Source: Bacillales bacterium UBA5578 | GTDB lineage: Bacteria; Bacillota_I; Bacilli_A; RF39; UBA660 | Assembly: GCA_002425325.1 (NCBI GenBank) | Contig: DIMA01000001.1 | Span: 50,093 to 114,092, forward strand | Reading direction: 5' to 3' | Length of the DNA stretch: 64,000 nucleotides | Made by a program: the position numbers | Part shown: positions 15,001 through 21,000 of the stretch, one piece after another | Numbering within the stretch: position 1 is the stretch's first letter | Layout of the letters: each line of letters starts with the position of its first letter

Positions 15001-18000
15001 GTTAGATCATCATAATGGAAATTTAGATTTAAATAAATATCCTTTTATTAAAGTAGTTGTAGAAAATAATGGTATTAAAGAAAGTGGTACAAGTTTATAT
15101 TATGAATATTTAATTAATAATTTTCCTAATAATAATATAATGAAAGAATCAGTTAATTATATGGTTAGATTAGTACAACTTGGAGATACATGGGAATGGG
15201 TAAAATATGATGTACCTGAAGCTCGTGATTTAGTTACTTTACTTTCTTATTATGGTTTAGAAAAATTTATAAATAAATATATTAAATTTTTAAGAAAGAA
15301 TAAAGAATTTTATTTTGATGAAGCAGAACAATTATTAATTGAAATTGATAAGAATAAAAAAGATAATTATTTTAAATTAGCTTTAGAAAATATTATTTTT
15401 AAGGAAATAAAAGGGTATAAAACTGGAATAGTATTTGCTGAAGAATATAGAAGTGAATTAGGAAATTATTTAGCGCAATATTATAAAGATAAAATAGATT
15501 TAGTTATAATAATTAATTTAAATAGAAGTATAAGTTATAGATGTGTTAAAGATGATATTAATGTATCTGATTTTGCTTCGTTTTTTGGAGGAAAAGGACA
15601 TGCTAAAGCAGCTGGTAGTCCATTAAAAGAAGATATTAAAGAAATAATAATAGAAGAGTTATTTGGTGATTAGATGAATTTAGAATATATTAAAGTTGGA
15701 TATTTAAGAACTAATTGTTATATTATATCCAAAGATAATAAATGTTTAATTATAGATCCAGGAGATGATTATCCCGAGATTATTAAAGTAGTTAATGATA
15801 GAGAAATAGTTGGTGTTTTAGTAACACATGCTCATCCTGATCATGTTGGTGCTTTAGAATTTTTTGATGCTTCTTTAATTTATGATTATTATAATTTAGA
15901 AGAAGGACATAATAAAATAGATTGTTTTGAATTTGAAGTATTATATACTCCAGGTCATAAAAGTGATTCATTAAGTTTTTATTTTGATGAGTTAAATGGA
16001 TTATTTACTGGTGATTTTATATTTTTTGAAACAGTAGGTAGAACAGATTTATATACTGGTAGTTCATCAGATATGCAAAAAAGTATTTTAAAAACTAATA
16101 TTTTTGATGATGATGTTATTATTTATCCTGGACATGGTAAATTTACTGATTTTAAACATGAAAGAGAAAATAATTTGTTTTTTAGAAATTAAATGATATT
16201 TACAAGCATTTAAAAATATGCTAAAATATACTTGTTTTGAAGCGATAATGGAAGAGTAGTAATAAATTAACGGATTAATAGAGAGTCTATGGTTGGTGGA
16301 AATAGATATGAGGTATTTATGAATTCACTTTCTAGTTTGTAAAAGAAAATTTACGACGGTGATGCGTTATAGTCATTAAGTGCATAATAAAGTATTATGA
16401 AGTAGGGTGGTACCGCGATATTCGTCCCTATAACATAATACTTTTTTTGTTAGGGTGTGATATTATGTTTGATATGCATTATGATTTGTTAACAGCAATC
16501 TATATGGCTAAACTTAATAATGATTTTGAAGAAATAAAAAAGTGGATTAGTTTTTATAATGATAATAATGTAATAGGTCTTATTGCTAATATGTGTTTTA
16601 TGAGTGAAAAAGAAATGCAAGAAGAATATCATCCTAATTATTATGTAAAAGATAAACCTATTTCTCTAATGCTTAAAGAAAGTATTGATTTAGTTAATAA
16701 ATATATTAATCCTAATATAGATATTATATTTAGCTTAGAAGGGTGTGATTATTTAAATAATCCAGATGAGTTAGATGAATTATACGAAATTGGATTAAGA
16801 GCACTAGCCCCTGTATGGAATATGCCTAATAAATATGGTTCTGGTATTAGAGGAGATTATGGATTAACTGGTGATGGAGAAGAACTTATTCATAAGGCAA
16901 TTAAATTAGGTATTGCTATTGATTTATCACATACTAATGAAAAGACTTTTAAAGATATAATATCAATTGTTAAAAAATATAGAGAAAATGGTATATATCC
17001 TGTTATATATGCTAGTCATTCTAATAGTAAAAAATTATGTGATAGAGTTCGTAATTTAACAGATGAACAATTATTACTTATTAAAGAAGTAGATGGTTAT
17101 GTTGGAGTTATGTCTAATCGAAATTTTGTTGAAAAAGATGCACTAGAAGAAAACATTTCGCTTAATGATCTTAAAGAAAGTTATATGAAACATTTAGTTC
17201 ATATAGGTAATATTATTGGATTTGATCATTTAACATTAAGTACTGATGATATGAAGTTTTCTTTAGGAGATGAAGATTATAAAAAATTACCTATATATGA
17301 ATATGAATCGATAACTAGTAGTTTAAAAGAAGATTTAAGTAAAGTATTTAGTGAAGATATTGTAGAAGATATTATGGTAAATAATGCTAAAAAAATATTA
17401 ACAAGTATTAAAGGAGGAACTTATGAAAGAAAAAGTAGAATTACTATGTAAGGAAATAGAAGAAAAAATAAGTAATGCAAAAGAAATTAAAGAATTAACA
17501 GATCTAAAAGTAGAATACTTAGGAAAGAAAGGTATTATTACTGAATTACAAAGTGGTATTAAAGATGCTGAAGATAAGAAAGAATATGGTATGCAAGTAA
17601 ATACTGTTAGAACTTGCTTTAACGATTTATATGAAAGTAAATTAACAGAATTAGAAACTTTAGAATTAAATAAAAAATTAGAAAGTGAAAGAATAGATGT
17701 TACTTTACCATCTAAAAGAATTAGACAAGGTTCTAAACATCCTATGACACGTATAAGAGAAGAATTAGAAGATTTATTCGTTTCTATGGGATATGATGTA
17801 TATGATGGACCTGAAATTGAAACAGATGAAAATTGTTTCCAAAAATTAAATTTACCATTAGGACATCCAGCTAGAGATGCTCAAGATACATTCTATTTAG
17901 AAAATGAATATGAAGCTTATTTACTTAGAAGTCAAACTTCTACAGGTCAAGTTAGAGTTATGGAAGCTAATAAAGAAAAAGGACCTATTCGTGTAGTTTG

Positions 18001-21000
18001 TCCTGGTAAAGTATATAGAAGAGATGATGATGCTACTCACTCACATCAATTCATGCAAATGGAAGGTTTAGTTATTGATGAAAATGTATCAATGTCTGAT
18101 TTAAAAGGAACTCTTGAAACATTCTGTAAAAAATTATTAGGTGAAAAAACTGATGTTAGATTTAGACCAAGTTTCTTCCCATTTACAGAGCCTAGTGTTG
18201 AAGTAGATGCTACATGTTTCAATTGTGGAGGAAAAGGTTGCCCATTATGTAAACAAACTGGATGGATTGAAGTATTAGGTGCTGGTATGGTTCATCCTAA
18301 TGTACTTCGTATGAGTGGATATGATCCAGAAAAATATCAAGGTTTTGCTTTTGGTACTGGATTAGATAGATTTGCTATGTTTAGATTTGGTATTACAGAT
18401 ATTAGAACTATATATGGTAATGACTCTAGATTCTTAAATCAATTTACGAGAGGAGATGAAACTAATGAAACTAAGTAGAAAGTTCTTATGTGATTATATA
18501 GATATTCCTGATATTACTACTTATGAATTAGCAGAAGAAATGACTCATATTGGTAATGAATATGATTCTTGTGAAAAGTTAATACCTGCTACTAAGTTAA
18601 TAATTGGTGAAGTTATTGAATGTGAAAATCATCCTGATAGCGACCATTTACATGTTTGTAAAGTTAATATTGGTAGTGAAGTATTAGATATAGTTTGTGG
18701 TGCTCCAAATTGTCGTAAAGGTTTAAAAGTAATTGTTGCACAAGTTGGTGCTAAATTACCTGGTGGAGAAATTAAAGCAGGTAAAATTCGTGGAGAAGTT
18801 TCTAATGGAATGTTATGTTCTAAAGCTGAATTAGGTTTAGATAATAAATTCTTAGAAGATAAAGATAGAGAAGGAATTCATGAATTAGATAGTGATGCTC
18901 CTATTGGAGAAGATCCAATTAAATATATGGGATTAGATGATGAAGTTATTGATTTTGAACTTACATCTAATAGAGGAGATTTATTAAGTATATTAGGTAT
19001 GGCATATGAAGTTGGTGCTATATATGGTAATAAAGTAAAAGATATGGAATTATCTTATAAAGAAGAAGGTAATATTGATTTTAATTTAAATATTGATACT
19101 GATAATTGTACTTTATTCTTAGCAAAAGAAATTAAAAATATAACTATTAAAGAAAGTCCTAATTTTATTAAAAATAGATTAATAGCAAGTGGTATTAGAC
19201 CTATTAATAATGTAGTAGATATTTCTAATTATGTTATGTTAGAAACAGGTCAACCATTACATTTCTATGATTTAGATAGATTAGGAAGAACTATTACAGT
19301 TAGAATGGCTAATGATAATGAAGAATTAGTTACTTTAGATAATGAAAAGAGAATATTATCTAGTGATGATATTGTTATTACTGATGGTAAGAATGCTGTT
19401 GGATTAGCTGGTGTTATGGGTGGTTTATCTACTGAAATAGAAGAAGATACTAAAAATATATTAATTGAATCAGCATTATTTAATAGTGTTAAAATTAGAA
19501 AAACTTCTAAGAAAATACTTAGAAGTGAAGCATCTAATAGATTTGAAAAAGGTATTGATCCTAAAAGAACTTATATGGCAATAGAAAGATGTTGTCATTT
19601 ACTTGAAAAATATGCAGATGCTACTATTGTAGGTGGTATGGTTAGTATAGATAATACTGATATTAAAGATTCTGTTATTGAAGTATCTTTAGATAAAATT
19701 AATAAAGTATTAGGTACTAATATTACTACTGAAGAAGTAATAGATATTTTAAATAGATTAGATTTTAAAGTAGAAGAAAGTAATAACATATTTACAGTTA
19801 CAGTTCCTACTAGAAGATTAGATATTTCTATTAAAGAAGATATAATTGAAGAAGTAGGAAGATACTATGGAATGGAAAAGATTGAAGGTTCTAAACTAAT
19901 CTTACCTTTAAAAGAAGGTAAATTAGATAAGGCTAAAAGACAAATAACTAATAAAATGATTTCTATGGGATTAAATGAATCATTATCTTATGCTTTAATT
20001 CCAGAATCAGAAGTACATAAATATACTACAGATGAATTTACTCATGTTAATTTAGCAGATCCAATGAGTGAAGATAGAAAGACACTTCGTTATAGTTTAT
20101 TATATTCATTAGAACAAGTTTATGAATATAATAAAGCTCGTAATTATAAAGATGTTTGTATCTTTGAAATAGGTAAAGGTTTCTATAAAGAAGATACTTA
20201 TAAAGAAGAATTAAAATTAGCTGGATTAATGACAGGTAAATATTATTTAGATATAAATAATACTAATGTAGACTTCTATGTGGTTAAGGGAATAGTTGAA
20301 GAATTATTAGATTATTTAGGATATAACGGTAGATATACTATTAATGTTGGTAATGTACCAAATGAATTACATCCAGGTGTAAGTGCTGTTATAAACATGC
20401 AAGGAAAAGATATTGGTATTATTGGTAAATTACATCCAAGTATTACTAAAGATGATGTATATGTATTTGAAATTAATTTAGATAAATTATTATCAAATAG
20501 AACTTCTAATATTAAATTTAAAGAAGTACCTAAATTCTTGGGTATGGAAAAAGATGTAGCATTTATTGTTAAAAAGGATATTACTAATAAAGAAATAATG
20601 GAAGTAATTAAAAAATCTGGTGGTAAATTACTTACTAGTATAGAATTATTCGATTTATATGAAGGAGATAAAATATCAGAAGATGAAAAGTCTTTAGCAT
20701 ATAAACTTAAATTTCAAGATCCTTCAAGAACTTTAACAGATGAAGAAGTTACTAAAGTTTTTGAAAAAATAATATCTGATGTAGAAACTAAGATAAATGC
20801 TAAATTAAGAAATAAATAAAGTTAAGTAATACTTAACTTTTTTATTTTTATTTATAAAAATTATGATATAATTATTTTATGGTAGGTGTGATATGAAAAA
20901 GAAAGTAATGATTATATTTATTATATTAGCTATAATATTAGTTGGATATTATTATATTTTAAATACTCATAATAATACTAAAAAGAATAATAGTATAATA

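Follow-up and report, generated by a model that had tools for sequence, protein, structure and literature searches.

A Phe T-box leader with a predicted terminator that encloses its antiterminator, ahead of an M19 dipeptidase gene and pheST in Bacillales bacterium UBA5578

Introduction

The leaders of Bacillus subtilis tyrS and glyQS are examples of class I T-boxes (Rfam family RF00230), in which a Stem I with its specifier loop and Stems II and IIA/B precede a discriminator of the order 5'-RRRxG-Stem III-AA-3', a UGGN bulge that pairs with the tRNA NCCA end and a G-U wobble sensor. The output is a hairpin followed by a U-tract, and the target is an aminoacyl-tRNA synthetase (aaRS) operon. In the textbook arrangement, the 5' strand of the terminator is the 3' half of the antiterminator helices A1 and A2, and its nucleotides are therefore shared with the antiterminator (PMC3375634, PMC7583486). 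The class II ileS leaders of Actinobacteria (M. tuberculosis, N. farcinica) also sense the tRNA 3' end with a discriminator made of Stem III, A1 and A2, and use the A1/A2 3' strand to sequester the Shine-Dalgarno (SD) sequence without any U-tract terminator. Here we describe a Phe T-box leader that lies upstream of a gene for an M19-family dipeptidase, pheS and pheT, in a window of 64,000 nt from Bacillales bacterium UBA5578 (GCA_002425325.1, DIMA01000001.1:50,093-114,092, forward strand). Unless another contig is named, coordinates are window positions, and all window features described lie on the + strand.

The Phe leader shares the class I components listed above, including the hairpin with its U-tract and the aaRS operon target, but it keeps A1 and A2 inside the terminator, and the nucleotides shared by the two folds are those of Stem III. 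As judged from sequence comparison, the helix that encloses the T-box and enters the U-tract is a predicted, conserved transcription terminator. The leader is thus probably a transcriptional Phe T-box that controls M19-pheS-pheT, with a terminator that encloses the antiterminator and competes with Stem III and its purine latch.

An enclosing hairpin at the U-tract of the Phe leader

By every sequence feature that we checked, the leader is a member of RF00230. A covariance-model search matched the region that begins with Stem I and ends with the 3' strand of helix A1 (16236..16432) with 108.8 bits (E 4e-23; gathering score 93) and covered the full model, 1-219. The specifier codon UUC (Phe; 16324..16326) sits inside GAAUUCA, next to the conserved purine A16327, and pairs with the anticodon of a tRNA-Phe(GAA) encoded in the same genome (G000 C31:14216-14291). 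The A73-CCA end of this tRNA is complementary to UGGU in the T-box bulge UGGUACC (16408..16414), which is contained in the T-box sequence GGGUGGUACCGCG at 16405-16417. The first-pass annotation of the window had recognised a Phe T-box from this specifier and this T-box sequence, and the full-length model match bears it out. Upstream, a promoter-like site (-35 TTTACA, 17-nt spacer and TG-extended -10 TAAAAT; 16199..16227) agrees with the consensus at 10 of 12 positions and would put transcription initiation immediately 5' of the T-box.

The discriminator motif RRRxG-Stem III-AA, defined from structures published in 2019 (PMC7583486), is complete. The 5' purine string AAGUG (16378..16382) is followed by Stem III (16383..16399), which the Rfam alignment resolves into CAUAAUA, the loop AAG and UAUUAUG, and by the conserved AA at 16400-16401. 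The antiterminator (16402..16431) comprises, in both the Rfam alignment and the folds, helix A1 (GUAGGG/CCCUAU), the bulge and helix A2 (GCGA/UCGU), with the G16415-U16425 wobble pair present at the base of A2. Two further adenines then lead to CAUAAUACUU (16434..16443), which runs into a tract of seven uridines, U7 (16442..16448). This tract is the expected termination point, as the same layout of hairpin and U-run is found in 74 distinct leaders.

No canonical terminator was found at the Phe leader, either by a terminator scan or by eye, which agrees with the first-pass annotation. The interval from 16432 to the U7 tract holds no complement to the antiterminator 3' strand CGUCCCUAU, and the 3' strands of A1 and A2 do not act as a terminator 5' strand as they do in textbook class I platforms. 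The sole hairpin adjoining the U-run is one that encloses intact A1 and A2. In it, AGUAUUAUG (16391-16399) is perfectly complementary to CAUAAUACU (16434-16442), a pairing already noticed in the first pass, and this pairing is the minimum free energy (MFE) fold. The outer helix of 9-10 bp extends below A1 and encloses A1, the bulge and A2 unchanged; its 3' strand enters the U-tract, as expected of an intrinsic terminator, and ends at 16442/16443 inside U7. Its 5' strand (16390..16399), delimited by MFE folds and covariation, consists of Stem III loop nucleotides and the entire Stem III 3' arm, and its 3' strand (16434..16443) directly repeats the Stem III 5' arm. The terminator fold is calculated at -18.1 kcal/mol, compared with -11.4 kcal/mol for Stem III, A1 and A2 together; Stem III alone accounts for -3.2 kcal/mol.

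Covariation of the outer helix

We collected 74 distinct hairpins of this kind, trimmed and re-aligned them, and found both-side changes in 8 of the 10 outer-helix pairs. In this alignment 98.5% of cells are paired, a figure that is partly circular, since the hairpins had been chosen for folding in this way. Slid controls gave 35-57% paired, and none of 500 shuffles reached the observed percentage paired or the observed covariation score. An earlier MAFFT alignment that retained the 5' flanks had left the Ser and Gly leaders out of register, with diluted Stem III counts and 83.7% of cells paired. We would count as independent evidence only the covariation, or compensated diversity, between sequence families, and not the percentage paired. 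The 5' strand falls into five such families, each with its own 3' strand, and cognate strands form duplexes of -8 to -14 kcal/mol, as against about 0 to -6 kcal/mol for non-cognate combinations.

The orthologous Phe leader of another species (L282) carries the compensated pair ACUAUUAUG/UAUAAUAGU in place of AGUAUUAUG/CAUAAUACU. The outer helix of this orthologue has undergone G-C to C-G and G-C to G-U changes at positions within the Stem III loop, and the compensation is therefore explained by the outer helix alone. The overlap with Stem III recurs: in 56 of the 61 leaders of the enclosing design (design C) that have a local hairpin 5' of A1, the 3' arm of this hairpin overlaps the terminator strand by at least 4 nt.

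Within the genome, the 73-nt modules of discriminator and terminator are 97-99% identical among the Leu, Val and Phe leaders (L001, L002 and L004, the last at 16376-16448), and that of the Ile leader (L005) is 91-93% identical. The 5' parts of the Leu, Val, Phe and Ile leaders are just 56-70% identical. The likeness of the 3' modules of these paralogous T-boxes suggests concerted evolution or module exchange.

Distribution of the enclosing design

The genome (1.2 Mb in 33 contigs) has 11 T-boxes, and the enclosing terminator is found in eight of them, namely those for Leu, Val, Phe, Ile, Ser, Met, Tyr and Gly. The Asn T-box and the Thr T-box within the window (2395-2577; 76.4 bits, under the gathering score) have canonical terminators. 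The first-pass annotation had set the Phe leader against this Thr T-box and concluded that the oddity did not look like a general feature of the genome; the Thr terminator is indeed a textbook one, but it is the odd design that turns out to be general. A second Thr T-box (L010; G000 C8:1660-1846, minus strand) lies ahead of a ThrRS-like gene from which the usual N-terminal domains are missing at the start. In its putative terminator the T-box sequence AAGGAUGGUAC pairs with GUAUCAUCCUU, only UUUGUCG follows, and a short open reading frame (ORF), MTETKTDTIFSQSKVKERRN, lies in between.

Across the genus, 73 of about 150 sampled T-boxes have the enclosing design, and none of the 20 species is without one. 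Leader classes were assigned by an MFE-based classifier and corrected by inspection; corrections concerned L109 and L130, in which the A1 3' strand ends in CCUUUUU, and some canonical terminators reaching into helix A2 that the classifier had put under type B. The pheS leaders of relatives come in three designs: canonical, enclosing, and one whose U-run is preceded by a complement of the T-box sequence. This last design occurs in L034-L036, L039-L041, L044, L052, L053, L055 and L056, with pairings (for example AAGGUGGUACCAC with GUGGUAUCACUU) of -12 to -21 kcal/mol. Since it pairs the T-box sequence itself, its OFF state hides the UGGN bulge, and the A1 and A2 3' strands remain unpaired. In G010, which is nearest by PheS (85% identity), only 72 nt separate the pheS start from a contig end, too few for its leader to be read.

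A covariance model of the enclosing hairpin (R1) was run on 300 genomes of the class. Every one of the 35 sampled genomes of the family (about 27 genera) gave strong matches, as did about 14 genomes belonging to eight other families. Matches were judged by bit score and then by inspection; every match spanned the full model, so that coverage was uninformative. We fetched 29 of these loci, and the T-box bulge was detected by script in 24. All 24 have the enclosing hairpin, each with its own helix sequence. The exact module is carried by records of uncultured gut metagenome-assembled genomes (MAGs), with rabbit, ruminants and humans as hosts and Bacilli, 'Tenericutes' or Erysipelotrichaceae as labels. 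The predicted enclosing terminator is the majority design in the genome, the genus and the family.

The M19 gene and its operon

The first cistron behind the leader (16465..17451) encodes a 328-aa M19-family, renal-dipeptidase-like metallopeptidase without a signal peptide, which matches Pfam Peptidase_M19 (PF01244) with 148.3 bits (cut-off 26; E 3.7e-43). As the first-pass annotation had stated, its end overlaps pheS by 29 nt. The pheS gene lies at 17423..18478 and pheT at 18456..20819, the latter with its start at 18456 or, more likely, at 18466 (MKLSRKF...). The arrangement supports a single operon, M19-pheS-pheT, predicted to be driven by the Phe T-box.

The M19 gene is intact and conserved rather than pseudogenised, with the metal-binding and catalytic residues H5, D7, E92, H156, H185, R196 and D261 invariant in 13 homologues of 37-96% identity; 494 homologues are found at E<=1e-10. 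Relatives in the PDB are M19 dipeptidases, including 3fdg, in alignments that span the core only (residues 82-313, E 2e-18 and weaker). Solved M19 structures include Rhodobacter sphaeroides Rsp0802 (3fdg/3ly0), Listeria Lmo2462 (3lu2, 3neh), Streptomyces coelicolor Sco3058 (3id7) and human renal dipeptidase (1itq). With these the protein shares the PF01244 domain, the HxD, E, H and H metal ligands and the R and D residues, and it differs from them as a short cytosolic form of about 328 aa that is the first cistron of a T-box/aaRS operon.

A survey of relatives for M19 genes behind Phe T-boxes, proposed in the first pass, finds the order Phe T-box, M19, pheST again, with an identical 29-nt overlap, where the M19 proteins are 96% and 70% identical. 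Of 20 species in the genus just 4 possess the gene, and the three besides the present one carry it as first cistron between a Ser (UCU) T-box and serS. In another MAG it is located after pheT. As it also stands behind Ser T-boxes and after pheT, M19 is recurrently associated with aaRS operons without being specific to Phe. The earlier proposal that the enzyme releases Phe from dipeptides stands only in part: co-regulation with the Phe operon is real, whereas specificity for Phe is weakened by the Ser T-box-M19-serS order in the three congeners and by unrelated first cistrons elsewhere. A more general role is plausible, in which M19 would free amino acids from imported dipeptides and so help supply when tRNA charging falls.

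First cistrons other than the aaRS gene are found in 6 of the 10 aaRS T-box operons of the genome. They encode a 120-aa membrane protein ahead of leuS (L001), an HD-domain protein ahead of valS (L002), M19 ahead of pheS, a GNAT protein ahead of serS (L006), a 191-aa protein with no Pfam match ahead of thrS (L008, window 2395-4954) and a DeoC-family aldolase ahead of tyrS (L009).

We take seriously, while leaning somewhat against it, the possibility that M19 is a passenger in a permissive slot between leader and aaRS gene, without any amino-acid-specific purpose there. The real role of the enzyme would then lie elsewhere, for example in the hydrolysis of D-amino-acid or cell-wall-derived dipeptides. 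The unrelated nature of the first cistrons just listed and the presence of the gene in so few species of the genus are in keeping with this idea, as are more distant M19 homologues, which adjoin genes for PF00144 beta-lactamase-like proteins, DUF218, miaA or a tilS-like gene. However, three separate arrangements tie M19 to aaRS genes (Phe T-box-M19-pheST, Ser T-box-M19-serS and pheS-pheT-M19), and both the overlap with pheS and the M19 tail YERKSR are preserved at 70% identity, which speaks against a passenger.

Among the homologues at 48-53% identity (L288, L291, L292, L293), PF00144 beta-lactamase-like neighbours are recurrent, and some are fused to DUF218. This neighbourhood hints at a role of the wider M19 subfamily with D-amino-acid or cell-wall peptides.

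A proposed switching mechanism and its alternatives

In structural studies, Stem III and its purines prove indispensable for tRNA binding and latch solely onto uncharged tRNA (PMC7583486). We infer that Stem III docking decides between the two folds of the Phe leader. In the OFF state, the terminator would keep A1, the bulge and A2, with 16390-16399 paired to 16434-16443 and the helix running into U7. Because the 3' strand of the outer helix repeats the Stem III 5' arm, both would compete for the same partner, and because the terminator must take the Stem III 3' arm, it would compete directly with the purine latch. In the ON state, uncharged tRNA-Phe would pair with UUC and with the UGGU bulge, and Stem III and the purine string would dock on the tRNA/T-box duplex and thereby be protected. 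The outer helix would be blocked, and RNA polymerase would pass U7 into M19-pheST. With charged tRNA, or none, Stem III would be unlatched and the repeat strand could displace its 5' arm; in the return to OFF, the outer helix would gain extra loop pairs and stacking on A1, and transcription would stop at about 16446-16449. Melting of helix A1 would be unnecessary in this scheme. We lean, with rather less confidence than for the Phe leader itself, towards regarding the enclosing design as a third kind of T-box expression platform, which would be the standard arrangement throughout a family of gut Bacilli with small genomes, would occur also in other Bacilli families, and would read charge via Stem III docking and not via A1 melting.

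Several observations weigh against the switching scheme proposed for the Phe leader, beyond the partial circularity of the paired percentage. The outer helix is AU-rich and is not called by a simple terminator scan; the scan misses the enclosing hairpin because its rule requires a loop of 3-8 nt. One sequence, GUAUUAUG / CAUAAUAC, is common to most copies of the hairpin, and many copies cannot be counted as separate events. With A1 and A2 retained in the OFF fold, stacking of tRNA on A1 could in principle favour the terminator too. Finally, the Ser leaders of the genus (L006 in G000, L117, L121, L126, L133 and L137) lack a Stem III hairpin in the interval from the F-box to helix A1. They nonetheless carry an enclosing terminator, AAGACUAUAA / UUAUAGUCUU, which pairs the purine-string position (AAGAC..UAUAA). 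Strict Stem III competition is incomplete as an explanation for these leaders, and the purine string itself would be the contested strand. The Ser leaders fit a broader rule, in which the module 5' of A1 would be the contested one.

The Ser leaders also bear on an explanation that we regard as unlikely, in which transcription does end at the enclosing hairpin but something other than Stem III decides between the folds. Either tRNA would act through A1, the outer helix requiring transient opening of A1, or the bulky tRNA complex would sterically or kinetically block closure of the outer helix, with the Stem III overlap a by-product. Their enclosing helix without a Stem III hairpin speaks for such an explanation, and the canonical mechanism describes the stack of tRNA on A1 as the deciding contact. 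Against it stand the overlap of the terminator strand with the Stem III 3' arm in 56 of 61 leaders, the repeat of the Stem III 5' arm in the 3' strand, as strand exchange predicts, and the contested strand of the Ser leaders, a purine string which elsewhere borders Stem III and thus belongs to the same targeted module.

The gene for M19 has a weak SD sequence, AGGGUG (16452..16457), which is not sequestered in any favoured fold. The first-pass annotation had noted that the antiterminator 3' strand is complementary to 16451-16457; complementarity does exist and covers part of the SD, but it amounts to only 5 bp (CCCUA/UAGGG), followed by U-U and G-G. That the leader is a translational T-box, as was proposed on this basis, with CCCUA (16426-16430) pairing UAGGG (16451-55) such that charged tRNA blocks the ribosome and uncharged tRNA frees it, is very improbable despite the real complementarity and the weak SD, and we rejected this SD-sequestering model: the fold reaches -7.9 to -9.4 kcal/mol compared with -18.1 for the terminator and -11.4 for the antiterminated form and is absent from MFE and centroid folds, UAGGG merely recurs from the A1 5' strand and partial complementarity to CCCUA is shared by every SD of the GGAGG type, the pairing is lost in the orthologous Phe leaders (L282, UAGAGGUG; L287, UAGGAG), paralogous leaders with the same 3' module have differing SD contexts, and the U7 tract right behind a conserved hairpin marks transcription termination. 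The stable, conserved sequestrator helix between antiterminator 3' strand and SD that characterises class II leaders is thus not found here, and the Phe leader differs from them in having a U7 terminator.

Significance and further observations

In the T-box field a single switching logic is described, with the A1/A2 3' strands common to terminator and antiterminator. Should the enclosing terminator operate as we propose, nature would possess a second logic that never requires A1 to melt, and the latching of Stem III and its purines onto uncharged tRNA alone, known from structures of 2019, would become the direct regulatory step. Such leaders would offer a natural test bed for the role of Stem III. 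The design would also explain the failure, in such genomes, of terminator tools that search downstream of the antiterminator, and would affect T-box annotation in many uncultured gut Bacilli. We found no description of an enclosing or Stem-III-invading terminator, and none of a T-box-controlled peptidase, in the searchable T-box literature, which does not cover key older surveys; the T-box regulon survey of 2008 mentions no peptidase among T-box targets (PMC2494555). With M19 a peptidase joins the genes under T-box control, and its positions suggest that, where bacterial genomes are very small, this dipeptidase subfamily and aaRS operons are repeatedly associated.

The Asn (AAC) T-box of the genome (L003; G000 C27:9757-10092, minus strand), which has a canonical terminator, is followed about 22 nt on by the sole detected tRNA-Asn(GUU) gene, then by a hairpin with a U-run, and then by gatC and gatA. 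A T-box directly before its own cognate tRNA gene is unusual. The layout is found in at least nine genomes of the genus (also L098, L101-L106 and L116), and several copies have no U-run after the T-box hairpin.

Immediately 5' of the Phe leader, 15674-16192 encodes a 172-aa protein of the metallo-beta-lactamase (MBL) fold, with a weak match to the anti-Pycsar protein Apyc1 (E 0.0014, below the cut-off). The gene order RNase HII, DHH and MBL upstream of the leader is also found in the relative with the 96%-identical M19 protein.

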